Positions 1,928 through 31,811 of a stretch of DNA of 32,534 bases are shown here, one piece after another. The stretch lies in the IMG/VR virus record IMGVR_UViG_3300035510_000237. One strand, 5' to 3'. Made by a program: the position numbers and the translations under genes. The notes below the pieces were generated by a model. The model saw only the letters and a program-made list of their open reading frames with translations, made no database searches and was not told where the DNA came from. Source of the stretch: a virus. Position 1 is the stretch's first letter. Each line of letters begins with the position of its first letter.

Positions 1928-2215
1928 TTGGTTAGAATTATTGATAAGAGAGCATCAGGAAAAACAAGCAGACTTATGCTAATCGCAAAGGAAAATAATG
2001 CTACATTTGTTTGCTCAAATCCAGCTGTTATGGAAGCCAAAGCTCATGCTTATGGTATTGTAGGAATTAATTTTATTTCCTATAGAGACTTTTTAAAAAG
2101 AAGTCAACAGCCTTTTAATTATGTAGTAGATGAATTAGAGAATTTTATTGCTTATATGAATACTTATGAAAAGCGTGGAAAAATGATTGCCTATAGTCTG
2201 AGTAATGAGGAGTAA
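1928..2215 (+). CDS. hypothetical protein with P-loop-like motif (95 aa)
   Basis: TTG start 9 nt after AAGGAG. The 17-nt RBS context AAGGAGATTATTTAATT is identical to the one at 597-613. The motif DKRASGKTSRL resembles a Walker A. No internal TAG. Confidence 0.45.
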   Translation: MVRIIDKRASGKTSRLMLIAKENNATFVCSNPAVMEAKAHAYGIVGINFISYRDFLKRSQQPFNYVVDELENFIAYMNTYEKRGKMIAYSLSNEE

Positions 2216-2220
2216 TAAAT

Positions 2221-2586
2221 TTGGAATTTAGAAATATTAGAACTTTTAATTGGGAAAATGCGCTGAGGGGAATGCGCAATCCTAAAGAGTCATATGATAG
2301 AATTGACAGCTAGTATGGTATTGCGCCTTATGATGCTTATGAGGATGTCGTAAATACTTTTATCTAGGAATTAGAGCCTGACGCAGAATATTCAGAAGAA
2401 TTTTATCAGAATAGTATTATTCACGAAGGTATTCTTGGGGATGATTCTTATATTGAATATGCTATGATTGGCCCTAAAGACATGAAGCTGGCGCAGACTC
2501 TTATTAAGGCTGGCCCAGAGCATCGTAAATTTCTACGTTAGATTTTCGTGAGTGTAGATATTACCGCTCCGTTATACTGGTATTAA
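2221..2586 (+). CDS. Thy1/ThyX-like (flavin-dependent thymidylate synthase-like) protein, exon 1 (3 TAG)
   Basis: TTG start after GAGGAG. Reads ...IKAGPEHRKFLRQIFVSVDITAPLYWY, which resembles the ThyX segment ...GHE-P-EH-F-F-V-APIF-. It ends in TAA at 2584-2586, directly before the intron-like sequence. Confidence 0.45.
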
Positions 2587-2899
2587 GGAGAAATTCTTTC
2601 TGCCAATGAAATACTTTTCCTAGTTATCGCTAGGGGTTGCGGATTTCCAATTTTTTGGTAAAACGCAGCTAACGGGGAACCACCCATTGGAATCCCGTGG
2701 GAAACTAATTGAATGATTAGAACCTGTAGAGACTATTCCCTAAGCCTTATGGGCAGGGAAGTAGGGCTACTATTGATACGTAGTTATGTTTTAGGAAACG
2801 AAGCATATGAAAATCGAAATGGTATCCTTCACAAGAAGTAAAAGATAGTCCACAAATGGGAAAGAATTTGATACCTACAAAGTCGGCACTGTCGCTAAC
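2587..2899 (+). mobile_element. ORF-less group I intron (approximate bounds) splitting the thyX-like gene
   Basis: A GC-richer non-coding insert. The core R-like element GTAGAGACTAT (GACTAT at 2731-2736) and the S-like element AAGATAGTCC (ATAGTC at 2845-2850) can pair as P7. Short hairpins are present, for example CCCA...TGGG at 2688-2706. Confidence 0.5.
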
Positions 2900-3340
2900 T
2901 CAACCTCCACCATGCACAAGATTCAGAGTAAGCCCATTACTATTGATTGTTTTGAGATTGATGATTATACACCACTTACTACAACTCTTCCATATGGAGA
3001 AAATCAGACAATCGAAGCAAATGTTTTTGAGGGTATTACAATTCCTTATCTTGAGGCTCTTCGTAATAATTATAATGAAACCAAAGATAAGAGAATCTGG
3101 AAGGAGCTTATTAGAGCGCTCCCTGAATCTTGGCTTCAAACTCGAACTGTTACTATGAATTATGAAAATCTTCTTAGTATGTGTTCAAAGAGTCAACGTA
3201 GATTCCATAAGCTAACTGAATGGTCTGGCGATAGCGAAGATTTCGTTACACCTAGTTTTATTAAATTTGCGCGCAGTCTGCCCTATGCGCAAGAGTTCAT
3301 TTTTATTGATGAAGGGCAACAAGAACCAGTAAATGAATGA
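2900..3340 (+). CDS. Thy1/ThyX-like protein, exon 2 (5' boundary approximate)
   Basis: Reads ...WKELIRALPESWLQTRTVTMNYENLLSMCSKSQRRFHKLTEW, which matches the ThyX C-terminal pattern R-x-LP-x4-TR-x3-T-x-N-x3-L-x6-R-x3-H-x3-E. TGA stop at 3338-3340. No canonical RHR(X)7S motif was located. Confidence 0.45.
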   Translation, partial: STSTMHKIQSKPITIDCFEIDDYTPLTTTLPYGENQTIEANVFEGITIPYLEALRNNYNETKDKRIWKELIRALPESWLQTRTVTMNYENLLSMCSKSQRRFHKLTEWSGDSEDFVTPSFIKFARSLPYAQEFIFIDEGQQEPVNE

Positions 3341-6661: not shown

Positions 6662-7912
6662 GTGACCAGTATAATTCAGGTAATTGGTTGTGTATTTAAT
6701 ACACCACAACTTTTGGATTATACTGATAAGTATACAATTATAGATGAAGATTTCCCCAATTCATTCCATAAAATTGTATTTGGGGCAATTTATAAACTCC
6801 ATGAATTAGGGTCAGAAAAAATTACGCTAGAAACAGTTTCAGATTTCTTATCTTCTCGCCCAAAAAGCTATGCCATTTATCAAAAAGAAAAAGGCGAAGA
6901 ATGGTTAATGAATGCGTCAACTGCCGCAGTTGAGTTATCTTTTGATTATTATTATCATAGAATGAAGAAAATGACTTTGCTTCGAGCTTATGATAATTGC
7001 GGTATTGATGTCAGTGATATTTATGACCCAGACAATATTTTAGATACAAAAAAGAAACAGCAACAAGAAGATTATTTAGATAATTCTTCACTTGACCAGA
7101 TTGCTGATAAAATTGATGAAAAGATTAGTTCTATACGACTCCAATATGTTGATGACGCTTATGGAGAAGCATATCAAGCAGGTGATGGAATTATGGAGTT
7201 AATTGATAAATTTAAAGAAGCTCCAGAAGTAGGTATTCCATTATATGGTCAGTTAATTAATACGGTTACGCGAGGCGCAAGATTAAAAAAGTTTTATCTT
7301 CAATCTGCGGCCAGTGGTGTTGGTAAGACTCGTAGCATGATTGCGAATGCTTGTTTTATTGCTTGTGATAAGATTTATGATGAATCATTCGGATGGATAA
7401 AGAATGGGACAAAAGAGCCTACTTTATTCATTACAACAGAGCAGGAACTTGAAGAAATTCAAACTATGATGTTAGCTTTTCTTTCAAATGTAAATGAGGA
7501 ACATATCTTAAATGGTTCTTATGAGGGCAATGAAGAAGAAAGAGTGCGGGAGGCCGCAATTTATCTTTCAGAAAGTCCTTTATATATTGAAGAACTTCCT
7601 GATTTTTCATTAAAGGATGTTGAAGATAGAATAAAGAAGAATATAAGAGATCATGATGTAAAGTATGTGTTTCATGACTACATTCATACCAGCCTCAAGA
7701 TTCTCGAAGAGATAACTCGTCGCAGTGGTGGAATTAAACTCCGAGAGGATAATGTCTTGTTTATGCTATCTACAAGGCTTAAAGATATGTGTAATAAATA
7801 CGGTATCTTTATTATGTCCGCAACTCAGTTAAATGCGGACTATCAAGAATCTAAAACTCCTGACCAAAATCTACTTCGTGGTGCAAAAAGTATTGCTGAT
7901 TGGACAAAGTAA
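6662..7912 (+). CDS. dnaB: DnaB-like replicative helicase, exon 1 (start codon uncertain: GTG at 6662 or earlier)
   Basis: A DnaB N-domain pattern is followed by Walker A SAASGVGKT and ...IMSATQLNADYQESKTPDQNLLRGAKSIADW. That last segment aligns to the DnaB motif SQLNRSLEQR...SDLRESGSIEQDAD. The ORF then stops in TAA at 7910-7912, at the point where the intron begins. Confidence 0.8.
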   Translation: MTSIIQVIGCVFNTPQLLDYTDKYTIIDEDFPNSFHKIVFGAIYKLHELGSEKITLETVSDFLSSRPKSYAIYQKEKGEEWLMNASTAAVELSFDYYYHRMKKMTLLRAYDNCGIDVSDIYDPDNILDTKKKQQQEDYLDNSSLDQIADKIDEKISSIRLQYVDDAYGEAYQAGDGIMELIDKFKEAPEVGIPLYGQLINTVTRGARLKKFYLQSAASGVGKTRSMIANACFIACDKIYDESFGWIKNGTKEPTLFITTEQELEEIQTMMLAFLSNVNEEHILNGSYEGNEEERVREAAIYLSESPLYIEELPDFSLKDVEDRIKKNIRDHDVKYVFHDYIHTSLKILEEITRRSGGIKLREDNVLFMLSTRLKDMCNKYGIFIMSATQLNADYQESKTPDQNLLRGAKSIADWTK

Positions 7913-9075
7913 TTGAATAATTTACTATCAATTTTTATATAGATTAAGGGATAAAGCGAAAATCTATATAAGGAGCGATAAATATGAAAAAAATAGAATT
8001 AACACAAGAACAAATAAGCCAAATATTAAACTTATATAAGAATAATTACTCTCAACAAAAGATTGCTAATATTTTAGAGGTATCTAGGCCTGTTATAAAA
8101 AGAGTTCTTACCGAGAACGAGGTTCTGTTAAGAGAAAGAACTCATAAATATAAAGCAGATTATGATATTTTTGAAAATATAGATACTCCAGAAAAAGCTT
8201 ATTGGTTAGGTTTTATAGCAGCAGATGGTTGTAATTATTAGAGAGAGAATAATTCTTCAATAATCATTTCTATAAACTAGAAAGATATTGACCATTTAGA
8301 GAAATTTAAAAAATTTGTAAATACTAATGCTGAAATAAAACTTTTTGAGCAAGATATGGGGTATTCAAATAAGACCTAGATGTGCAAAATAGTTTTAAAT
8401 AGTAAAAAAATGAGTAATGATTTATATGATAAAGGTATAGTGCCTAATAAAAGTTTAATATTAGATATTCCAAAAATAGATGAAAAATATTATTATCCAT
8501 TTATTCTAGGATATTTTGATGGTGATGGTTCTATAAGTAAAACTAATTGTTATAATAATTATTGTATTAGCTTTCAAGGAACTAAAGAAATTTTAAATTG
8601 GATAAATAATTTATTTGAAATTTCAAAATTGGATAAAAGATAGAAAGAAAGTTCTAAGAATAGTTATTATATTAGGTGTGGTGGAACTAATAAACCATAT
8701 AATATATTAAAATAGCTTTATGATTCTTGTGAAGTTCATTTAGATAGAAAATATAAATTATTTAAAGCTTTGGAAACAGTCGTCCTTAGTAGAAATACTA
8801 AGTGATTATTAGACCGAGAATTGCTGGAAAACCCTTAGAGCTAATTAAACTACAACGTAAATATGAAATAAAATTAAGCGTGAATGTTTGAAAATTAATT
8901 AGATTGGGTAATCAGCAGCCGAGCCTTGAAGAGAGGAAGGTTCAACGACTATCTGGTAGCGCAGAGTAGCAGAAATGCGAAGTACGGTCTACCTAAACTC
9001 TTAATAAAAGAGCAGGGTAAAGATATAGTCTACTCCTTTATGAAAATAAAGGTATTAAGGAAAATTGATTATGGT
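7903..9075 (+). mobile_element. group I intron (approximate bounds) in dnaB, carrying a LAGLIDADG homing endonuclease ORF
   Basis: The core R element GGTTCAACGACTATC (GACTAT at 8947-8952) and the S element AAGATATAGTC (ATAGTC at 9025-9030) match the IA-type consensus. A P9-like hairpin CCTTTA...TAAAGG lies at 9036-9053. A 10-bp hairpin at 7936-7970 sits just before the endonuclease RBS. Confidence 0.6.
7984..8805 (+). CDS. LAGLIDADG homing endonuclease with N-terminal HTH (273 aa, 5 TAG)
   Basis: RBS AAGGAG, ATG at 7984. Two LAGLIDADG motifs, LGFIAADGC and ILGYFDGDGS. TGA stop at 8803-8805. Internal TAGs at 8239, 8278, 8380, 8641 and 8713. Confidence 0.75.
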
Positions 9076-9339
9076 AGTATTTTACTTCTTGTTAAAGATG
9101 AAGATTTGGAAGCTCTTGAACCAGTTTTGTCGGCAAATGTCTTTGACAAACCAACAATTAAAATGTCTGTTTATAAAAATAGACGAGGTAAATATAAGGG
9201 TGTTTATTTATGGTGTAGAGCTGATTTGGGAACCTGTAGAATAAATCCTATGTTTTGTACCACCTGGGATTATGAAGTAATAAATGTAAATAATATTCGT
9301 ATTATTGTCGATGGTGACAATGAACAAAATTGGAATTAA
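9076..9339 (+). CDS. dnaB: DnaB-like helicase, exon 2 (5' boundary approximate)
   Basis: Reads ...SILLLVKDEDLEA...KNRRGKYKGVYLWCRADLGTCR, which aligns to the DnaB C-terminus ...DADIVAFLYRDDYY...KQRNGPVGTV-L-F. TAA stop at 9337-9339. The track ORF beginning at TTG 8926 is intron sequence read in the same frame. Confidence 0.6.
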   Translation, partial: SILLLVKDEDLEALEPVLSANVFDKPTIKMSVYKNRRGKYKGVYLWCRADLGTCRINPMFCTTWDYEVINVNNIRIIVDGDNEQNWN

Positions 9340-10956: not shown

Positions 10957-11052
10957 AAGAAAGAAAAGAGTTGAATAAAAATAGATTATAAATTAATTAA
11001 TCCAATAAATAATGAATTAACAATTACCTAGCAGATTTTTGCAAATAGAGGA

Positions 11053-12681
11053 ATGAAGCCACCAGAAACAGACTTTTATCTCCATTTAGATGATAGTATT
11101 ATTTATCCAGCTGTTTTAATTGATAGAATGACTGATGGCGCAAAAATGCTTATCCAGCATATCGTTAATAATGATAATATTTTTATCCAAGTGGACAGTG
11201 ATGCTGATGGATACACGTCTTCGGCGATTTTAATTAACTATTTAAATAAATTATTTCCGCACTATGTCTCTGAACATTTGACCTTCAGGCTTTAGGATGG
11301 CAAACAGCATGGAATTATTTTGGATACTATTCCTGACGATACTAAACTTGTAATTGCACCAGACTCTAGCAGTAATCAGTTTGATGAACACCAGCAATTA
11401 AAAGATAAAAATATTGATGTTTTAGTTATCGACCATCATGAGGCTGAAAAAATTTCAGAAGCAGCTTGTATTATTAATAATCAACTTTGTGATTATCCTA
11501 GTAAGTCTTTATCTGGCGCAGGAATGGTTTATAAATTCTGTTCATACATTGATTCCATTTTGGAAATTGATTATGCAGAGAATTATCTTGACCTTGCGGC
11601 TTTGGGTATGGTAGCTGATATGATGGATTTGCGTGACTATGAAACAAAAAGATTGATTGATAAAGGTCTCAGTAATGTTAATAACCCTTTTATGCTTGAG
11701 ATGATGAATGTACAAAATTACTCGATTGAGAAGCATGGCGGGTTTGACCCATTTTGTATTAGTTTTTATATCGCACCCCAAGTAAATGCCACAATTCGCA
11801 TGGGCAGCCAAGAAGAGAAATTACTTTTGTTTAAGTCAATGCTAGAGAATTATGCTTATGAAAAGGTTCCTTCCACTAAAAGAGGTTGTAAAGGCCAGAT
11901 GGAAACACTTGTTGAGCAAGCCTGTCGTAATTGTACTAATATCAAAAATAGACAAACTAAAGCCCGTGATGAAGGTTTTGCTATTGTTGAGAGTTTGATT
12001 GAAGAAGAAAATCTTTTAGATAATAAAATTTTATATATACAAATTCCTGAAGAAAAAGCTGTTAATAAGAATTTAACAGGTTTAATTGCAAACCAGCTTA
12101 TGGCAGAATATCAACGCCCTGTTGCTTTGTTAAATAAAGTAAATAGAGACGGTGCAACATTTTGGGAAGGAAGCTGCCGCAATTATGATAAATCTGCCTT
12201 TACGAATTTTAAAGATTTCTTAAACAATAGCAATTTAGTTGATTTTGCAGAAGGACATCAATCTGCTTTTGGTCTTGGGGTCGCAGCTGACCAAATGGAG
12301 AATTTAATTGAATATACAAATACTGCTCTCGCAGATTTCTCTTTTTCACCTCATTATGATGTTGATTTTATTTTTAGCGGTAGCAATTTTAGTCCGGCAG
12401 ATATTCTTGAAGTCGCTGAGTTAAAATATTATTGGGGACAGGGTTTATCTGAACCTTATATTGCGATTGAGCGAATTAATGTCACTAAAGACAATATTCA
12501 ATTACTTTCTCCAGACAAACATCCTACTTTAAAAATTACTCTTGCCAATGGAGTTAGTTTGATGAAATTTAAATCTTCTCAAGAAGAATTTAATAGTTTG
12601 TATAGAGATACCGGTAGTACAGTTATTACAATTATTGGAACGTGCAATGAAAATAATTGGAATGGTAATATTAGTGCTTAG
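11053..12681 (+). CDS. recJ: RecJ-like DHH-family ssDNA exonuclease (542 aa, 1 TAG)
   Basis: DHH motifs DSDADGYTSSAIL and VIDHHE. DHHA1-like segment FAEGHQSAFGLG. The TAG at 11293-11295 fuses the track ORFs 11053-11295 and 11320-12681 in one frame. Confidence 0.7.
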
Positions 12682-12697
12682 ATTTTAATTGAGGAAT

Positions 12698-12991
12698 ATG
12701 AGATTACAGATGTACAACAATATTATTTCTGATATTGATAATGACTTTTTGTAGCCAGAAGAGGAGGAAGTGGATAATCTATATACTTGTGATGAATTGT
12801 CTCAAATTATTATAGATGCTATAAATGCTTGGGAATCTATTAAACCCACTAGTGAGGATTTAATAGATGCTTTAGCGACATTGGGAGATTGCGGTTATCC
12901 CTTATCCATGTAGGACACTACCGAGGCAATAAAGAAAGTTAATTAGGCATTAGATTCTTTATTGCCTTCTCTTGAAACTTCTACTAGCTAA
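12698..12991 (+). CDS. hypothetical acidic protein (97 aa, 3 TAG)
   Basis: RBS GAGGA, ATG at 12698, TAA at 12989-12991. Three in-frame TAGs. Confidence 0.4.
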
Positions 12992-20689: not shown

Positions 20690-22918
20690 ATGGCTAAAAT
20701 CATTAAACGTGATGGTTCATTGGCTACTTTTGATAAAGATAAAATCATAAATGCTATTAACAAAGCATTTATCGAAATAGATGGAACTTTATATGAAACT
20801 GATACTGCAAAAGATATTGCCGCAGATATTGAAGATAAGGTCTTAGAAAGTTCTGCAACTATAACAGTTGAAACTATTTAGGATTGGGTAGAAGATTATT
20901 TAATGGCTTCCGATAGAAAAGATGTCGCAAGGTCTTATATTCGTTATCGTTATAAGAAAGAAGTTGTAAGAAATCTTCATAGTGATTTCTTTGATGCTAT
21001 TGGAGAAAAACTTTCAGCTAGTAATGTCCAAAATCAGAATGCTAATGTAGATGAACAATCTTTCGGCGGGCGCATTGGAGAAGCCGCAAGTGTAATGACA
21101 AAGAATTATGCTTTGACTCAAATAGTTTCTGAAATGGCTAGAAAGAACCATGAAAATAATGAAATTTATATTCATGACTTGGATAGTTATGCTGTCGGTA
21201 TGCACAATTGTTTGTCAATTCCTTTTGATGATTTGCTCGCCAAAGGATTTAATACCAGACAAACAGATGTGCGGCCAGCCAATAGCGTAAATACAGCTTT
21301 CCAACTTGTTGCAGTTATTTTCCAGCTTCAATCTCTTCAGCAGTTCGGCGGCGTGAGTGCTACTCATATTGATTGGACTATGGTCCCATATGTAAGAAAG
21401 AGCTTTTATAAACATTATGCTAATGGTTTAAAGTATTGTGAACATCAAGAAAAATATATTGATGGATTTACGAGCGAAATGTCAATACATGATAGTGCGT
21501 ATTATGAATATAGCCCATTGGCATATGACTACGCCATGGATATGACAGTTAAAGAAATCTATCAAGCAGTTGAAGGTATGTATCATAACCTCAATACTCT
21601 TCAAAGCAGAAGTGGCAATCAGTTGCCTTTTACTTCTATTAACTATGGTACGTGCACTTTGCCAGAAGGTAGGATGATAACTAAGGCTCTTCTTGAAGTC
21701 TCTCTTGAAGGACTTGGAAAGCTTCATAAAACTTCTATTTTTCCATGTGGAATTTTTCAATGTATGAAAGGTGTAAACCGCGCACCTGGCGACCCTAATT
21801 ATGACTTATATCAGCTAGCATTAAAATCTACAGCACAAAGATTATACCCTAATTACGCGAATGTTGATTGGAGCGGTAATGCTGGCTATGATATTAACGA
21901 TCCTAGAACATACTTCTCAACGATGGGTTGTAGGACCGCCAATGGCTGGGATATTAACGGTTTTGGCCAGCTTAAAGACGGTAGAGGCAATATTTGCCCA
22001 GTTACTATTATTATGCCAACGTTGGCTATGGAGGCAAAAGAAATGGCTTCTAATAGTGATTTTCAAGTTGAGCCTGAAAAAGCTATAATTCGTTCTTTTA
22101 TGACTTTACTTGATGCAAAAATCTGTGAAGCTAAGGATATGCTTCTGGAGCGTTTTAACTGGATTTGCGCGCAAGACCCCTCTAGTGCAAAGTTTATGTA
22201 TGAGAACAATGTAATGGCTGGTTATGTTCCTGAAGAAGGAATTAAAAGCGCGCTAAAACATGGCACTTTAGCAATTGGACAACTTGGTTTGGCTGAGACA
22301 CTTCAGATTCTTGTCGGCTGTGACCATACAGAAGCAAAAGGCATGGAATTAGCTAAGACGATTGAACAGCTATTCAAGGATAGATGTGCTCAGTTTAAAG
22401 AAGAATATCATTTAAATTTTGGTGTATATTATACCCCAGCAGAAAATTTATGCCATACGGCTTTAAAGAAATTTAAAAATAAATATGGTGTAATTGAAAA
22501 CGTATCTGATAAAGATTTCTTTACTAATAGTATTCATGTTCCTGTATGGAAGGAAGTTAGTCCTTTTGATAAAATTGATATTGAAAGTCAACTAACTGGA
22601 TATAGTTCTGCGGGCTGTATTACTTATGTTGAGCTAGATACAAGTGTAAAGAAAAATTTAGAGGGACTTGAAACCATTGTTAATTATGCTATGGACCATG
22701 ATATACCATACTTCGCTGTAAATACAATTAATGACACTTGTTTAACGTGCGGATATACAGATGAAATAAATGATGTCTGTCCTATCTGTGGAGGAACAAA
22801 AATTCAACAATTACGTAGAGTGACTGGATATTTGACAGGTTCGTATAAAGATGCTTTTAACAAAGGTAAGATCCAAGAAACCGAAATGCGAGTTAAACAT
22901 ACTGGGAGACTCGAATAA
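20690..22918 (+). CDS. nrdD: anaerobic ribonucleoside-triphosphate reductase (class III RNR; 742 aa, 1 TAG)
   Basis: N-terminal ATP-cone MAKIIKRDGSLATFDKDKIINAINKA. C-terminal zinc ribbon CLTCGYTDEINDVCPICGG and glycyl-radical motif RRVTGYL. The TAG at 20879-20881 fuses the track ORFs. The ATG at 20690 follows GGAGG. Confidence 0.85.
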
Positions 22919-23604
22919 TGGGTGTTATATATAAATATGAAAATAATATCAACCATCATATTTATATTGGGCAAAGTGTAAATTTAAAAAAGAGGATTAG
23001 AGAACACAAATGCGCGTTCTCTAATCCTAATAACCCAGATTACGACTTCCCAATTCATCGAGCATTAAGAAAATATGGAGTTGAAAATTTTACTATTTCT
23101 ATCTTAGAAGAAGTAGAAGATAACGCACTTGATGAAAGAGAAGTATATTGGATTGCTTATTATGATTCATACAAAAATGGATATAATGCCACCCCTGGAG
23201 GACAAAACGGAGGAAGCTATAATGGGAAAGAAGTTTGTTTATATGATTTAAATGGTAACTTTGTAAGAAGTTATAAAAATGCTAAAACAGCTTGTGAAGC
23301 AATAAAAGTTTCTTATTCTACAATTTAGCAAGTTTTACATCAAAAAAGACCGACCTGCAAAGGCTATTAGATAAAATATAGAGATGATAATAGAGAGATA
23401 AAAAAGTTTAAATCTCGTCAAGGAGGCGCTATACCTATTTATTAGTTAGAAAAAAATACTAATAATATAATTAAAGAATGGGATAGCGCACAATAGGCCG
23501 CTAGGGAATTAAACTTAGACGCTTCTACCATTACAAAATGTTTAAAAGGTAAATTAAAAAGTCATGGCGGTTATAGTTGGAAATATAAGGAGGAATAGAA
23601 ATGA
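22918..23604 (+). CDS. free-standing GIY-YIG homing endonuclease (I-TevI-like) with C-terminal NUMOD/HTH region (228 aa, 5 TAG)
   Basis: GVIYKYENNINHHIYIGQSVNLKKRIREH reads YIGQS with Gln as CAA. C-terminus ...LNLDASTITKCLKGKLKSHGGYSWKY. The start overlaps the nrdD stop (TAATGG) and its TGA overlaps the nrdG ATG. Confidence 0.75.
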
Positions 23605-24089: not shown

Positions 24090-24734
24090 ATGACAGAAGA
24101 AAAAAGACAGCTCCTACGCCGATAGCATAAGGAACTATTAGAAAAGCTTTCTGAAATGGAAGAGCCTTATGAAGAGACAATAGCAAAAGTTATTGCTGCT
24201 TATATTAAAGATTATCCTAAAAATTGGGCTAATGGCGTAGATGAATTAATTGATATTTTTTATGAAGAATTAACTGAAACTATTTCTATTACAATAAAAG
24301 AAATCAAAAACATTTATACTAGAATAAAAGATTTTGATATTAAAGATGTATTTGATTTAACCTATAATGCAGACGGTCAAACCTTAAAAGCCAGAATCCA
24401 AAAGCATTGGGATTAGACAGAAGAAGCTTTAAATAAACTTGATAAAAATAAGTTTGACATTAGAGATTAGCTACTTAGACAAATTTTAAAAATTTTAGAT
24501 AATGAAACTAAAATTGTTTAGAATAAAGTTATCAAGAATAAAGTCGAGCCTTTAGCAGATATTATTGTAATTGAGGGCGATGGCACAGATGAATGTAGTG
24601 ATTGGTTCGGAGAGCATCCAGTAGGAGAGGTAGAATTACCTCCTTACCATCCTGGATGTACGTGTTCTTTTTATTACGACCAAACAGATGACCCAGATGA
24701 CTTTCAAGACTTAGATTTGGAGCCAAACGCTTGA
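24090..24734 (+). CDS. hypothetical protein with C-terminal PPYHPGCTC motif (214 aa, 4 TAG)
   Basis: ATG at 24090. C-terminus CSDWFGEHPVGEVELPPYHPGCTCSFYY resembles the Mu-F/SPP1-gp7-type HPNCRC motif. TGA at 24732-24734 overlaps the next -35 box. Confidence 0.45.
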
Positions 24735-25782: not shown

Positions 25783-26208
25783 TTGAATATTAAGCTTTTA
25801 ACAGATACGGCTAAAGTCCCTTATCGTGGGTCTGCGGCCGCAGCTGGTTACGATATTTATGCAGATGAAACTATTATGATTCTTCCTGGTGAGGTATCTA
25901 AAGTTCATACAGGAATTGCTACTGAACTTCCTGAAGGAACATTTGCAGGCATTTATCCTAGAAGTGGCCTTGCTACTAAGAACGGTCTGCGGTTGGCTAA
26001 TTGCGTGGCTGTTATTGACTCAGATTATCGTGGCGAATGGCTAGTTCCAATTTATAATGATTCTAGTTCTCCTCAGATTATTTCTAAGGGCGACCGCATT
26101 GCGCAGATGGTTATTCATAAATATGAGACTGTTGACTTTAATGTTGTTGATAAATTAAACGATACTATTAGGGGTGCTGGTGGTTTTAATTCCACTGGGA
26201 TAAGATGA
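25783..26208 (+). CDS. dut: dUTP diphosphatase
   Basis: All five dUTPase motifs are present: AGYDIYA, RSGLA, VIDSDYRGEW, RIAQMV and RGAGGFNSTG. Confidence 0.85.
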   Translation: MNIKLLTDTAKVPYRGSAAAAGYDIYADETIMILPGEVSKVHTGIATELPEGTFAGIYPRSGLATKNGLRLANCVAVIDSDYRGEWLVPIYNDSSSPQIISKGDRIAQMVIHKYETVDFNVVDKLNDTIRGAGGFNSTGIR

Positions 26209-26696
26209 TAAAACTTTTAGCCCTTGACTAGGCTTCAAATGTTTCAGGTTGGGCTGTTTTTGAAGATGGAAAATTATTGGAAAGCGGCACCTTTACCGCT
26301 AAAGGAAAGGACCTTGGCGAACGTCTTTATGATATTCGCCAAAAGGTCTCCAACCTTATTTCTAAATATAATATCAATTATTTAATTTTTGAAGATATTT
26401 AGCTTTAGGGAAATGTAACCGGTAATGTCCAAACTTTTAAAGCCTTGGCAGAAGTATTTGGAATTATTTATGAATTGGCCACTGAATTAAATATTCCCAA
26501 CGAGGCAGTATTAGCTAGCTCTTGGAAATCTACTCTTGGCATTAAAGGCCGATAGAGAGCGGAACAAAAGCGAAATGCGCAAAAGTACGTCCTGGAAAAT
26601 TATGGCAAAAAGGTATCTCAAGATGAATCAGATAGTATTTGTATTGGCACACACTATTTCCTAAAGCAATAGAAAGTCTTTGACTGGTCGGATTAA
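26205..26696 (+). CDS. ruvC: RuvC-like Holliday-junction resolvase (163 aa, 5 TAG)
   Basis: Reads MIKLLALD(TAG)ASNVSGWAVFEDGKLLESG and DESDSICIGTHYF, with the catalytic Asp/Glu pattern of RuvC/YqgF-fold resolvases. It overlaps the dut stop. Confidence 0.65.
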
Positions 26697-26770
26697 GTAA
26701 AAGTATCCCCTTTATTTTTTATTATCCTTTAGATAGGGTAAATTTTTCGACAAATAAGGGGGAGATTACA

Positions 26771-27205
26771 ATGGTGGAATTTGTCATAAAGTACTGGGTT
26801 GAATTTGTATTTGGTTTAATCGTTACTGGCGGAGGTTTGTTCTTAAAACGCTTTTGGACTTTGACCAAAGAAAATTAGCAAAAACAATAGGACGAATTTT
26901 ACAGTAAAATTAAAGAAGAAATCAACAAAAGTACTGAATAGTCCCAAAAGGATGATAGTCTCTTACAGGGTGAAATTGATGACTTAAAGACAGCCATGGA
27001 AGCTCTACGCAATGGAGTATTATCTCTCTAGGGTAGATAGTTCAAAGCAGAATGTATGAGACTCTTAGAAGAGGGACACGAAATCACGATTGAAGAATTT
27101 AAAGACCTAGATAAAGACCATGATGTGTATAACGCTTTAGGCGGAAACCATAATGGCGATCACCTTTATGACTTAGTAAAGAAAAAAGTGGAGAATAAGT
27201 TGTAA
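26771..27205 (+). CDS. single-pass membrane coiled-coil protein (144 aa, 6 TAG)
   Basis: RBS AAGGGGGAG. N-terminal TM helix VEFVIKYWVEFVFGLIVTGGGLFL. TAA at 27203-27205. Confidence 0.45.
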
Positions 27206-27738: not shown

Positions 27739-28158
27739 TTAAGCCACCCTTTCAATAATAATATTTGCGTGCTCCACACTAATGGACTAATCTCCTACAT
27801 TCATGACACTAATCTAAGAGCAGCAGTTTTTTGGTACATCCACAAATACAGAAGAAGAAACATTATTAAAATCTTCTACATCTCCTGGAGTGGAAATCAT
27901 AGTTGTAGATACTATTGGCTCACCATCAATCGCTATTGCTAAACTGGCAGGACCGGCAGTCCCACCAGTAGGTATAGCAATATTGGCACCAAAAGTAATA
28001 CGGTATCTAGCTCGACACTATTGCGTCAAGCCACGTAAAGTTACTAAGCCGCTACCAACCCGATGTAGCATACTACAGTTGCCTGGAATTACAACTGTAG
28101 TAAATAAAATATCTTGATTAGTAGAGACTGTCTGAACAGCATTACTTGTAAGCTCCAT
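27739..28158 (-). CDS. hypothetical beta-rich protein (139 aa, 3 TAG), possibly a C1q/BclA-C-terminal-like domain
   Basis: RBS AAAGGAG 9 nt before ATG (plus CAT 28156-28158). Reads ...GANIAIPTGGTAGPASLAIAIDGEPIVSTTMISTPGD. Confidence 0.45.
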
Positions 28159-28175
28159 AATCTTAATCTCCTTTA

Positions 28176-28889
28176 TCAAGCAGCGCAATTACAGCCGTTA
28201 TAGGTATAACCATATAACTGAGATGCTGGAAATGCTGGAATAGGGGTTGGGCGCAGTTGATTGACCAAATACTGGTTCTGCGAGCACTGTGAAAGCTAGA
28301 AGTTTGCCCCTAAAAGTTCAGTATTCTTAGCTTCTAAACGGTCGCGTAAATCCTGCATAGTATTAGAATTAATCAGAGCGCGAGTAGCTTCGCCTTCCTG
28401 ATGAATAGCGTTAGTGATATCGCAGGTATTCTGCGCAGCAGCATAACGGTTCTCCAGGATATTTTGCTTTACATCACAGCAACAAGATTGCATAGAATAG
28501 CGATTGTCTGCTAGATTTTGATTTACAGTGTCAAAGCCCTGCGCAACAGAACTAAAGCCTGTACACAAATCACGCTGTAAATTTCCAAAATTTGTTAAAA
28601 GAGTAGTATTATTGCTGTAGAATCCATCACATAAACCCTATGAGAGTCCACGAACACCATTTTCAACCTACTGGAAATTCATATCTTGCGCGAGTTCGCC
28701 TCTTGTTAAAGCTCCCTAAGCAGATGAATTATTGCTGCCCCAGGCACCATTACCGCCCCAGCCCATAAACATGAACAGGAACAATATGATAATCCACCAT
28801 GCGCCTCCATTACTCCCACCGAAACCATCTCTATCGCCAGTTACTGCGGCGAGGTCAGATAAAGAATAACCACTTGCTTCGTTAAACAT
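28176..28889 (-). CDS. membrane protein with Gly/Trp-flanked TM helix and Cys-rich C-terminal region (237 aa, 4 TAG)
   Basis: RBS AGGAGG 9 nt before ATG (plus CAT 28887-28889). TM segment GGAWWIIILFLFMFMGWGG resembles the YjcZ-family TM motif. Cys clusters CCCD and YNGCNCAA. Confidence 0.45.
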
Positions 28890-28915
28890 AAAAAATTGCC
28901 TCCTAAAAATATATA

Positions 28916-29149
28916 TTATTTAATCCCAAGCTATTGCTTAAAGGAATTAAATTCGGTATCAAAATCTACGCCTTTCTATTGGCATAGATTACGAGCAATT
29001 TGTTCAATCTCCGCAGTTTTATTATTCTTGGCTAAATTTAATAAATTACTTCCTAATGGAGTATCTGCCATTTGAGATTCTAACATATTCAACACAAATT
29101 GTTGAGGATTACTGCCCATCTACAGAAGGGTCATTGGATTTATATTCAC
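28916..29149 (-). CDS. hypothetical small protein (77 aa, 3 TAG)
   Basis: RBS AAGGAGGG 6 nt before GTG (plus CAC 29147-29149). TAA at plus 28916-28918. Confidence 0.4.
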
Positions 29150-29161
29150 TTATATCCCTCC

Positions 29162-29539
29162 TTAAAAATTATATTCCGTAGATTCATTTGTAGAAGGAAT
29201 CTACGGAAGGGCAGATTTGATCTGGTTAATGGCTGACTCAAACTCTTCTCTTGTTATGTAATTGCCCATATTATTATTTATTTGTTCAGTTGTGGGCATT
29301 TCCTTTAATTCATACATATTGAAAAGCGCTGAGCCATCCATCCCAATCTGTTTAGTATAAATGCGTTTATTTGCCAAATCTGGAAAAAAGAATACTGACC
29401 CATCAAAATCAATAGTGGTGGCTCTTACTTCGTCCAATGAGGATACTGGCCTACCTTTTAAATTATACTATAGCTATTGTTGATAAGTGTTCTATGTCCG
29501 GTATGGCGTTTGTTGCTATGGATAGTAGTTAGTATACAT
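29162..29539 (-). CDS. hypothetical protein with Gln/Tyr-rich N-terminus partly encoded by TAG (125 aa, 5 TAG)
   Basis: ATG (plus CAT 29537-29539) after AAGGAA. Reads MYTNYYPQQQTPYRTQNTYQQQLQYN..., where four of the Gln codons are TAG. An alternative ATG lies at 29581. TAA at plus 29162-29164. Confidence 0.4.
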
Positions 29540-29659
29540 TTTATTTCCTTCTTTCTAACAGTTCTTCTCTAACCCTTCCATAGCTATATAAAAAATAAAT
29601 GGGATAAATTTACTAATTTTGTCCTAAAAACTTAAAAAAATTTTTAATAAAATATAACA

Positions 29660-29716
29660 GAAAAATGGGGAACCGCTCTACCTTTAAAGAGCGGTTCCCC
29701 ATTTTATTTTTTATTA
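29660..29716. terminator. bidirectional rho-independent terminator
   Basis: 13-bp perfect stem GGGGAACCGCTCT/AGAGCGGTTCCCC with T-tracts on both strands. Confidence 0.75.
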
Positions 29717-30106
29717 AGAAACCTTTAATTGATTAACCTGTGACTCAATTTTTTGATTGATATAAGTCTCTAAATCTCCAACAGCAGAAGATAAATAGCT
29801 TTGTGCCTCTTGGCTCAGGATTGTCATAACTGCTTGATAAGTTTGCTAGAAAGCAGCTTTTTGAGCTTCTGTGTCAAAACTACCTTGAGCTTTTAAAGAA
29901 TTTACATATGTTTGATTTGTAGCAGTTACACATTCTGTAATTGTCTAATCTAACATCTCAATATATTTCTTAGTTGTTTCATCCTCTATATTAGAAGTAA
30001 CTTCCTCAGTCTTAGAATTTATCCATTTAACAAAGAAACTCGTTAAAATGGTTAAAAGTGGAATTAAAACAATCTCAAAAATTTCAGTGATTAATTCTTG
30101 TGCCAT
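29714..30106 (-). CDS. holin-like protein: N-terminal TM helix plus long coiled-coil tail (130 aa, 2 TAG)
   Basis: RBS AAGGGAGAG 6 nt before ATG (plus CAT 30104-30106). Reads MAQELITEIFEIVLIPLLTILTSFFVKW..., followed by a Q/E/K-rich helix. Confidence 0.45.
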
Positions 30107-30223
30107 ATAAATCTCTCCCTTCATATTAAATATGAAAAAGTAGCATAATAAATTATCTAACTTAGGCCATTTAAAGATAATAATATTCTACTAAAAATTA
30201 ACAAATATAGAGATAATTTCCAG

Positions 30224-30252
30224 TTGCATTATGATGAAAAAAATGATATAAT
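30224..30252 (+). promoter_or_regulatory. sigma70 promoter (TTGCAT-17-TGaTATAAT)
   Basis: TTGCAT at 30224-30229 and TATAAT at 30247-30252, upstream of the DGR target gene. Confidence 0.5.
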
Positions 30253-30284
30253 ATTTATAGAAATTAAGAAAGGAGGAACGTATT

Positions 30285-31811
30285 ATTTCAAACAAAGTAA
30301 TTTTACTTGAATAGGGTGGAATTAACACCAATGCAGTTACTTTATCAGGCATTACTGTCTCAACATTACCGACTAAAACAGTATATGAATACGGTGATTC
30401 TTTTGACCCTACTGGCATGGTAATTACTGCGACTTATACTGATGGTACTACTGCAATAGTATCTAATTATATTTATACACCAACTTCTGTTTTAAATACA
30501 ATAGGAAGTTAGGCAGTCCTTATATCTTATAGCGAAAACGGATTAACTTATCTTAATAGTGTAACAATTACAGTAAACCGTAAAAAAATTTCTATACCTA
30601 CTTGGAAATCAAATTTAACTTATAATGGTAATACCTAGCATGTAGATGCTGAACAATATTGGAATAATTATGATTCTAGTAAAATGGTTATTAGTGGAAC
30701 TACATCTGGCACAAATGCTAGTACGTATTCCGCTTCATTTACACCAGGAAGTAATTATTAGTGGTCTGACGAAACAACTTCTGCAAAATCTGTAAATTGG
30801 ACTATTAATAAGGCTACTGGATATTTATATATAAATGGAAGTGTCAGTAGCCCAACAGTAAGTTTAGATTCTAGTAATTCTAGTTACTCTGCTACCATAA
30901 CAGGTTCAGGTACTATTAGTTATACACCTACTTCAGTGACTGGATTAACTTTAAGTCTTAGCAATGGGACTTTCACTGTTAAAGCTACAGCTAATGTTTC
31001 CTCACAAATTATTACCATTAAATGCGCGGCAAGTACCAATTATACAGCCCCTGCAAATTTAACTATTACAGTTAGCGCAAATGTTTGGTCATGGGGAGAT
31101 GAAACTGCAGTAGGCGACGCTGACTGGTGGGCTAGACTAAAGTCTTGGGCTTCTACAGCTTCTGCCACAGAAAGATCTGATTGCGTTGGTAAGAAAAAAT
31201 TAGTCAGCTTATCTACCTCAGTGCTTGGCGCTAATGCGGCTACAATGATATGTATTGGAGCTGACTAGGATGGGTCAAATACTTTAACCTTTTAGACTGC
31301 TGGAGTATTGCCCAATACAACTGCTTTTAGCTCTTCTAGTGCCGTTTGGATAGGTTCTACTGCTAGAACTTTATGTTAGAATTTCTATAATTATTGTAGT
31401 GCAAAAAATTCAATAAAAACTATTAGTAAAGGCACTTGCGCATCTACTAATAGTTCTAAAAGTGGCACAGCAACTTATAATGATGAAACAGTTTTTTTAC
31501 CATCAGAGGCTGAAATGGGTTTAGATTCTTATTCTAGCTTGACTTATAGTAATTCTACTACAAGTAACGCCGAATGTACTAAAGGATTAAAATTTAAATA
31601 TAGTTATTATAGTTCTAATACTACAAGAATTAAATATGTTATGAGCGCAGATGGTACAATTGGTTCAACAGCTGGTTATTATTGGGAGAGGTCGCGTTAC
31701 TACAACTCGGGCAACTCGAACATTGTTTGCCATGTCTACGGTGATGGATCTGCGGTCAACTCCGGCTACTACAACAGCTGTTACTTGGCCCCCGCTTTCG
31801 CCATCGGCTAA
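30285..31811 (+). CDS. DGR target (variable) protein: bacterial Ig-like domain plus Ser/Thr-rich region plus C-terminal variable repeat; putative receptor-binding tail fibre (508 aa, 7 TAG; apparent ATT start)
   Basis: GGAGGA at 30272-30277 is followed by ATT ATT, and no in-frame ATG/GTG/TTG occurs upstream. An Ig-like domain VTLSGITVSTLPTKTVYEYGDSFDPTGMVITATYTDGTT follows. Seven TAGs interrupt the frame, and the gene ends at TAA 31809-31811. The last 36 codons are the VR. Confidence 0.7.
31690..31798 (+). repeat. DGR variable repeat (VR)
   Basis: 109 nt. 92 of 109 positions are identical to the TR at 32392-32500. All 17 mismatches lie opposite TR adenines. The 3' end TTACTTGGCCCCCG is shared with the TR (IMH-like). 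Confidence 0.85.

Follow-up and report, generated by a model that had tools for sequence, protein, structure and literature searches.

Phage group I introns with homing endonuclease genes, overlap between such genes and the ribozyme core, hairpins over the ribosome-binding site, and recoded intron endonucleases have all been described before. In the td system of phage T4, a self-splicing group I intron interrupts an early DNA-metabolism gene and contains an in-frame stop codon just past the 5′ splice site (PMC3073962). The 3′ end of the open reading frame (ORF) for the endonuclease I-TevI overlaps core helices and its ribosome-binding site lies in a hairpin; ribosome entry impairs splicing, and efficient splicing needs delayed translation (PMC3073962, citing Gibb & Edgell 2010). 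Borges et al. proposed a delay of another kind for the Agate gut phages, in which an early gene contains an intron whose endonuclease is rich in TGA; the stop codons would postpone its production until late infection (bioRxiv 10.1101/2021.08.26.457843). The DNA analyzed here, the 32,534-nt virus record IMGVR_UViG_3300035510_000237 (the window), appears to hold a related arrangement, namely, a mobile group I intron with a phage-type IA-like core in a DnaB-like helicase gene of a TAG-recoded tailed phage that has an SPbeta-like replication module. This reading, including the splicing and timing inferred from the sequence, is assigned a probability of roughly 0.85.

The locus shares with td/I-TevI the type of intron and host gene, the early stop, the overlap of the ORF 3′ end with core helices, and the hairpin around the ribosome-binding site. 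However, I-TevI is a GIY-YIG enzyme encoded in the P6 loop with overlap at P6a/P7, whereas the LAGLIDADG gene here occupies the P1 loop, and its overlap is with P2, the guide sequence, and the 3′ strand of P1. Overlap of this kind ("core creep") has a precedent in the I-TevI gene of the td intron (PMC3073962); it is the position of the ORF in the P1 loop that is unusual here. The delay in T4 is due to a late promoter, whereas in-frame TAG codons are likely an extra lock here; the Agate phages (bioRxiv 10.1101/2021.08.26.457843) read TGA as Trp, compared with TAG, probably read as Gln, in the window. The rec introns of Staphylococcus Kayvirus phages encode endonucleases of the same I-MsaII family, with a helix-turn-helix followed by two LAGLIDADG motifs and an ORF 3′ end overlapping the core, but the ORF of phage MSA6 lies between the P7 strands (the P8 region) of an intron in a recA-like gene, overlaps the P7 3′ strand, and uses the standard code. 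The ORF-less introns of Streptococcus phage Str-PAP-1 and Bacillus phage SP-15 (major capsid gene) are 80 to 84% identical in nucleotides to the present one over the P3-P7 core; P1 in these introns is short and folds locally into a hairpin, and an endonuclease gene is either lacking or lies downstream, whereas here P1 is closed over 830 nt. Finally, the helicase resembles YorI of SPbeta (37% identity over 96% of the length) and has SPbeta-like neighbors too, but YorI is uninterrupted and SPbeta uses the standard code.

Split helicase gene and splice junction

A first-pass annotation, made from the letters of the sequence, had proposed a DnaB-like helicase split by a group I intron with a LAGLIDADG ORF. 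The present analysis bears this out, with a DnaB_C domain in the joined protein, 76 uninterrupted loci, and a match to the Rfam group I intron model RF00028, and places the parts as follows.

6662-7900, plus strand: helicase exon 1, 413 codons, GTG start as listed, ending in ...LRGAKSIAD (ORF list, Pfam, and PHROG)
7901-9060, plus strand: group I intron, 1160 nt, with U7900 before the 5′ splice site and G9060 as omega G
7910-7912, plus strand: TAA stop in the exon 1 frame, three codons into the intron, which terminates translation of unspliced RNA
9061-9339, plus strand: helicase exon 2, 92 codons and TAA, KIDYGSILLL...KNRRGKY (homolog alignment)

The borders given in the first-pass annotation were partly right. 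Exon 1 had been said to end in ...SIADW followed by TAA; an ORF does run from 6662 to 7912, its last residues being ...LRGAKSIADWTK before the TAA, but the last true exon base is T7900 (...SIAD), and the W, T, and K codons and the stop that follow are intron-encoded. The C-terminal part had been said to resume about 1.17 kb downstream; the insert is there, at an exact length of 1160 nt. The second ORF, which reaches 9339, includes ...KIDYGSILLLVKDEDL...KNRRGKYKGVYLW..., and exon 2 begins at A9061 (KIDYGS...). No in-frame TAG is present in exon 1. GC content is markedly low in the region, at 20 to 28% versus 30 to 37% in the flanks.

Joining 7900 to 9061 yields the exact helicase frame and a 505-amino-acid protein; the predicted ligated junction (marked by a slash) is GCTGAT/AAAATTGAT or, with more flank, ...AGTATTGCTGAT/AAAATTGATTATGG.... 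The Pfam domains DnaB (N-terminal, 26 bits) and DnaB_C (66 bits) are both found in this one polypeptide, and the DnaB_C match covers residues 198 to 464, across the junction at residue 413. PHROG 19, "DnaB-like replicative helicase," matches residues 5 to 477 of the joined protein (3e-57). The uninterrupted helicases of Enterococcus, SPbeta-group (YorI), Geobacillus, and Lactobacillus phages align with it in a single piece, at 94 to 99% coverage and 35 to 41% identity, and comparison with the phage homologs shows zero gap over ...LRGAKSIAD/KIDYGS.... A scan of IMG/VR, a public viral contig collection, identified 80 related loci that are 62 to 100% identical, in 76 of which the D413 codon directly abuts the K414 codon (gap 0). 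Among the related loci, L005 is the same phage with an identical 1160-nt insert, and L060 carries an insert at the same place in the helicase. The phage of the window is also represented in the Logan contigs SRR11793975 and SRR11794174 and in JGI 3300035497 and 3300035511.

The alignment of the joined exons with DnaB sequences, which the first-pass annotation had suggested, fixes the splice at 7900/9061. Because of the reading frame, T7900/A9061 is the one possible junction; therefore, a U precedes the 5′ splice site and G9060 ends the intron, as group I chemistry needs. All four related introns described below also have an early in-frame stop downstream of the 5′ splice site, a known trait of phage group I introns (PMC3073962, PMC3984707). 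By its domain and family matches, the gene is predicted to encode a DnaB-like replicative helicase of the SPbeta YorI type.

Group I core and long-range P1

The intron contains the following helices, those from P3 to P9 being taken from the RF00028 alignment; the catalytic core overall spans 8812-9052.

8785-8802, plus strand: P2 hairpin, 7 bp with a GAAA loop, within the endonuclease ORF; four of seven pairs compensatory, 100% of cells paired
8812-8816/8985-8989, plus strand: P3
8822-8827/8912-8917, plus strand: P4
8832-8834/8906-8908, plus strand: P5
8841-8847/8896-8902, plus strand: P5a
8919-8920/8939-8940, plus strand: P6
8924-8926/8934-8936, plus strand: P6a
8947-8952/9025-9030, plus strand: P7
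8990-8994/9015-9019, plus strand: P8
9035-9041/9046-9052, plus strand: P9, a 7-bp hairpin with a GAAA loop

The core strings R (GGTTCAACGACTATC, 8939-8953) and S (AAGATATAGTC, 9020-9030), to which the first-pass annotation had drawn attention, pair as P7 as it had claimed, and its P9-like hairpin corresponds to 9035-9052. The covariance-model run that it had recommended was positive, with relaxed filters only: RF00028 matches 8760-9052 at 64.6 bits, compared with a gathering score of 50 (E = 1.1e-15). The model misplaces the P1 5′ strand, since P1 is split by the ORF.

Three further introns (L087, L088, and L089) were recruited via the endonuclease protein and are homologous introns at the same helicase site. 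Covariation was counted in an alignment of five introns (the window, L060, L087, L088, and L089) over P2, P3, P4, P5, P5a, P5b, P6, P6a, P7, P8, and P9. Across the 55 pairs counted, 95.3% of the cells are paired, versus 35 to 42% when the partners are slid by 1 to 3 columns, and 22 pairs show compensatory changes on both sides; the observed values were reached by none of 500 shuffles. P7 is invariant and therefore uninformative for covariation. The core is 80 to 84% identical in nucleotides to ORF-less or differently organized introns of Streptococcus, Bacillus, Lactococcus, and Serratia phages, and these relatives suggest the phage IA-type subgroup. On this evidence, the insert is a group I intron with a complete, covarying P2-P9 core, for which self-splicing is predicted.

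Two smaller matters concern the 3′ end of the intron. The first-pass annotation had seen in KVLRKIDYGS, around the start of exon 2, a partial duplication of the exon 1 end LLRGAKSIADW, perhaps from coconversion. This claim did not survive: the related introns show no likeness to their own exon 1 ends, and KVLR is an in-frame reading of P9 and the 3′ tail, so the apparent duplication of the exon end is unreal. In addition, the Rfam LOOT RNA model has a subthreshold match at 8990-9069 (33.8 bits versus a gathering score of 46.4) that overlaps P8-P9 and probably reflects just two GAAA-capped hairpins.

The 5′ splice site is joined to the 3′ end of the endonuclease ORF by a long-range P1.

7897-7924, plus strand: P1 5′ strand, composed of exon UGAU and intron UG (7897-7902) and the extensions 7905-7910 and 7913-7924
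8754-8782, plus strand: P1 3′ strand, composed of the extensions 8754-8765 and 8767-8772 and the internal guide CAGUCG (8777-8782), in the last codons of the ORF
7927-7935, plus strand: exon 2 complement, AUCAAUUUU, in exact reverse complementarity to the first nine bases of exon 2 (+1 to +9; 9061-9069)

Pairing of UGAUUG with CAGUCG sets U7900•G8779 at the 5′ splice site, directly 5′ of P2 and P3, and beyond a small internal loop, P1 extends through 7905-7910 with 8767-8772 and 7913-7924 with 8754-8765. In RNAduplex, P1 reaches -19.1 kcal/mol, compared with -10.9 for the best of 153 intron-internal control windows, and the P1 duplex outscores all of the ~150 control windows in four of the five introns (the present one and three of the four others). 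The register of P1 is constant in all five introns, with extensions of unrelated sequence: CAAAGU/GCUUUG in the window, CUAGUUCUAAG/CUUAGAACUAG in L087, AAUUCUUUAUA/UAUAAAGAAUU in L089, AAAUUUUUA/UAAAAAUUU in L060, and AAUUGU/ACAAUU in L088. The stretch GAAAC(A/G)GUCGU is invariant, including codon third positions, where the endonuclease proteins are merely 54 to 62% identical; its sole change, A to G in L087, keeps the pair. In the Str-PAP-1 and SP-15 introns, the guide likewise lies about 20 to 27 nt ahead of AAUUGCUGG with a U•G at the splice site, and the spacing here is comparable once P2 is discounted.

Because P1 joins the splice-site region to the ORF 3′ end, the endonuclease gene and its leader (7925-8753) form the P1 loop. 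In its last ~17 codons (~258 to 273), the ORF also specifies P2, the guide sequence, and the P1 3′ strand; P3 starts 6 nt past the stop codon. A local P1 and guide were also sought closer by, in the 83 nt that separate the 5′ splice site from the ATG of the endonuclease; the only candidates have 3 to 4 bp and a U-A at the site, none is conserved in the five introns, and they were rejected for the guide farther downstream. The exon 2 complement at 7927-7935 sits at the foot of the P1 loop and shares bases with the U-run of the Shine-Dalgarno hairpin described below. It was considered as P10 and rejected: 9 of 9 bases are complementary, yet the element is not next to the guide sequence. The complement is present in L088, partial with a compensatory change in L060, and missing in L087 and L089.

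Endonuclease gene and TAG recoding

7984-8805, plus strand: LAGLIDADG homing endonuclease ORF, 273 codons and TGA (8803-8805, directly after P2), with an N-terminal helix-turn-helix
7932-7974, plus strand: Shine-Dalgarno hairpin, 14 bp, 7932-7945 (UUUUUAUAUAGAUU) with 7961-7974 (AAUCUAUAUAAGGA)

The endonuclease ORF was confirmed as first annotated, with its own ribosome-binding site, ATG, five TAG codons, and both LAGLIDADG motifs, YWLGFIAADG (8200-8229) and FILGYFDGDG (8500-8529). It is open only with TAG as sense: in-frame TAG codons occur at 8239-8241, 8278-8280, 8377-8379, 8641-8643, and 8713-8715, and internal TAA or TGA codons are absent. Pfam LAGLIDADG_3 matches at 36.2 bits against a cut-off of 22.5, HTH_38 and HTH_7 also match, and phrog_4645 matches at 1.5e-54. 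The ORF belongs to the I-MsaII family and is 31% identical, over 97% of its length, to "DOD" endonucleases of this type from Staphylococcus Kayvirus phages; the closest solved structure is PDB 2DCH, with which both motifs align. The product is a double-motif LAGLIDADG homing endonuclease of putative activity. The homologous ORFs contain TAG codons at other positions, two in L060, one in L088, three in L089, and none in L087; TAG at differing positions argues that these are live genes under a TAG-sense code, not pseudogenes.

A 10-bp hairpin at 7936-7970 had been proposed as a possible regulator of endonuclease translation. The hairpin is real and larger than described, with 14 bp that take in five of the six Shine-Dalgarno bases: the AAGGAG at 7970-7975, 8 nt upstream of the ATG, is paired at A7970 to A7974. 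The 5′ arm is U-rich, and the fold has a z-score of -4.4. Equivalent hairpins with other stem sequences are found in L060, L087, L088, and L089 (z-scores of -3.3 to -8.7), with a U-run paired to the Shine-Dalgarno sequence each time; this conservation in four homologous introns favors the regulatory role that had been suggested. The 5′ arm TTTTTATATAG was considered as a phage promoter motif and rejected, with 5 sites in the window against 5.2 expected; a sigma-70 scan was at background, and an internal late promoter has no support.

TAG usage was examined across the 32.5-kb window by counting in-frame TAG codons in three sets of genes.

Eleven replication and nucleotide genes (SSB-like, helicase, primase, Pol III alpha, NrdD, NrdG, dUTPase, and others): 4065 codons, 0 in-frame TAG
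Three embedded endonuclease ORFs (LAGLIDADG, GIY-YIG after nrdD, and the GIY-YIG-domain protein at 925-1914): 830 codons, 17 in-frame TAG
Nine other TAG-bearing ORFs: 1888 codons, 38 in-frame TAG

The distribution is strongly bimodal, with zero versus ~20 TAG per 1000 codons, and the endonucleases have the density of the other TAG-bearing genes. Out of frame, the helicase and polymerase genes often contain TAG, so its absence in frame there reflects selection. Many gaps in the ORF map disappear when TAG is read as sense: ~20 ORFs of the window are open only under this reading, for example, those at 901-1914, 10975-12732, 24090-24734, and 26190-27205, and further such regions lie at 27739-30433 (minus strand) and 30252-31811. 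The first-pass view of TAG as a sense codon in the endonuclease is thus matched by the coding pattern of the whole window, which supports a predicted TAG-recoded (code 15-like) phage.

Gln is the most frequent partner, both opposite the TAG codons of the window (92 counts) and opposite those of the relatives (42 counts), and TAG is likely Gln (code 15), as judged from these alignments. Some sites face His, Glu, or Lys, including one that faces Glu in 47 relatives. The RecJ/DHH-like gene (10975-12732) illustrates both patterns: its TAG at 11293-11295 faces His in 59 of 61 relatives, which would be unexpected for a Gln codon, and the TAG at 12681, its stop under code 11, is opposite Gln in 36 relatives, with the ORF running on for 17 codons more and its homologs likewise extending past this point.

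The carrier helicases of the related introns are ~53 to 75% identical to that of the window, and the intron cores are 73 to 84% identical in nucleotides; cores more alike than their host helicases are what a mobile element would be expected to show. The replication module resembles that of SPbeta (YorF, AAA_24, YorH, helicase, and primase). The nearest cultured relatives are Enterococcus and Enterocloster phages, which also neighbor the TAG-recoded phAss-1 group (PMC10607447). No close phage relative was found in GenBank, where a megablast search with 25 kb gave one 86-bp match. Introns and alternative coding densely co-occur in gut crAss-like phages (PMC7886860).

Other mobile elements were observed in the window and in related loci. 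Another gene is split by a second group I-like intron, which has no ORF, at 2582-2858 (277 nt); with 2209-2581 joined to 2859-3340, the product reads ...APLYW/WKEFDTYK..., and a match to phrog_6721 (unknown function) spans the junction (7e-51). This insert holds P4-, P7-, and J8/7-like strings (GCUAACGGGGAACC, GAGACUAUU, and AAAAGAUAGUCC), and its 2721-2806 part is 87.5% identical to Enterococcus phages EF1 and EF5. Rfam reported nothing for the insert, even at E <= 1, and Pfam nothing for the split gene (2209-3340), whose resemblance to ThyX by eye is unsupported. In L060 (5174-6283) and L087 (1354-2372), a second intron of this type, with a GIY-YIG ORF, lies in the same helicase gene; the two helicase introns of L087 are separated by an 18-nt micro-exon, GCGAAGTCCATAGCTGAT, and the GIY-YIG ORF of L060 has ~11 in-frame TAG codons. 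As for the two GIY-YIG ORFs of the window, the one at 22918-23604 is a free-standing gene with a 1-nt overlap with the nrdD stop codon and 5 in-frame TAG codons, and the one at 925-1914 has a C-terminal GIY-YIG domain, by eye an N-terminal membrane or coiled-coil region, and 7 TAG codons.

Proposed timing, alternatives, and significance

The proposed course of events begins with the helicase as an early gene. A ribosome on exon 1 would halt at the TAA at 7910, the ribozyme would fold, P1 would close over the 830-nt loop, and guanosine splicing would produce the mRNA for the 505-amino-acid helicase. Early in infection, the endonuclease would remain unmade, with its ribosome-binding site occluded, and any early ribosome that started on it would terminate at codon 86, where the first TAG lies, over 500 nt upstream of the guide. 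P1 and P2 would never be unwound by translation, because early ribosomes either stop at this codon or find the site occluded. Conversely, translating the last 17 endonuclease codons would unwind P1, the guide, and P2, and P3 as well would be covered by a ribosome at the stop codon. When TAG comes to be decoded as an amino acid (probably Gln), full-length endonuclease could be produced, which would cut intron-less helicase alleles of co-infecting relatives at GCxGAT/AARATTGA, enabling the intron to home. In this inferred scheme, the hairpin and the TAG codons together would bar ribosomes from the ribozyme until late in infection. Because the ORF 3′ end is the intron guide sequence and P2, the hairpin and the five recoded TAG codons may constitute a double translational lock in which the code switch arbitrates between splicing of the early gene and selfish spread; this part of the proposal is tentative and is given a little less than even odds.

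Several observations weigh against the reading as a whole. In its default gathering mode, Rfam reported nothing for the entire window or for 7700-9300. The model also gave zero matches for L060 and for the rec intron of Staphylococcus phage MSA6; Rfam is insensitive to ORF-split phage introns, which are systematically under-called. Only four exon bases pair in P1, and because all five introns share one site, the exon-guide pairing cannot covary and the extension alone does. No canonical P10 is evident in the intron. No suppressor tRNA (CUA), or any other tRNA gene, was found within the 32.5-kb window, although published recoded phages without a suppressor tRNA occur (PMC7886860, PMC10607447). 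The residues opposite the five TAG codons of this endonuclease vary among homologs, leaving Gln unestablished for it. Finally, TAG also occurs in the RecJ-like gene, a RuvC-like gene (26190-26696), and the phrog_6721 gene; because recombination and nucleotide-metabolism genes carry TAG, the equation of TAG-bearing with late is approximate.

These points bear differently on the alternatives. Were TAG read as sense all through infection, by a host or constitutive suppressor, the TAG codons would be mere codon usage and the hairpin alone would regulate, in line with the last of the observations above and with the existence of a family member without TAG (L087). This is considered rather unlikely, given the sharp split between 0 in 4065 codons and ~20 per 1000, the TAG richness of all three endonuclease ORFs inside the TAG-free module, and the published late-switch model for such phages (PMC7886860). 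The missing suppressor tRNA and the unconserved residues opposite TAG would instead fit an intron that splices but whose endonuclease ORF is a decaying pseudogene, with the TAG codons as real stops and no homing, the intron persisting since its loss is imprecise; degenerate endonuclease genes are, moreover, common in group I introns. However, all five interruptions are TAG, with no TAA, TGA, or frameshift in 273 codons at 24% GC, both catalytic motifs are intact, and the same TAG-only pattern at the same density recurs in ~20 other ORFs of the window and in the L060, L088, and L089 homologs, so that decay is judged very unlikely.

The in-frame ATG at 9040, 21 nt upstream of exon 2, could be taken to mean that no splicing occurs and that two polypeptides are made (413 amino acids plus WTK, and a C-terminal fragment from this ATG), or that the gene is dead. 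Yet the ATG has no Shine-Dalgarno sequence and is part of the P9 stem, purifying and compensatory selection acts on an intact core, the C-terminal 92 residues hold invariant helicase positions, and all 76 uninterrupted relatives encode a single polypeptide; this explanation is highly improbable. Least credible of all is an intervening element of another type (an intein, for instance, or a group II intron or insertion sequence), with a probability close to nil. DnaB helicases are classic intein hosts and LAGLIDADG domains are found in inteins, but here the reading frames already refute this view: a TAA follows three codons past the junction, and the exon frame contains several stops. The endonuclease, in a different arrangement, starts from its own ATG behind its own ribosome-binding site, profile searches gave zero Hint-domain matches, and the group I covariance-model match is strong and accompanied by covariation. 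The rejection of an intein in the first-pass annotation, which had cited the stop and the ribozyme sequences, is therefore upheld.

A mobile group I intron in the helicase gene of a TAG-recoded phage thus remains the preferred reading, to which the long-range P1, the position of the ORF in the P1 loop, and the recoding of the whole phage are additions beyond the first-pass annotation. Standard annotation would break this locus into a helicase cut short, an orphan ORF for the C-terminal part, and two or three pieces of the endonuclease. The three TAG-style endonuclease ORFs in a TAG-free replication module provide an independent, TAG-type example for the proposal of delayed selfish endonucleases, and the long-range P1, with its guide in the ORF, offers a concrete reason for selection of the delay. 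Natural variants with TAG (the window, L060, L088, and L089) and without it (L087) exist at one insertion site. If the lock reading is true, this intron family would be a compact, testable reporter of the timing and manner of TAG read-through in recoded phages.

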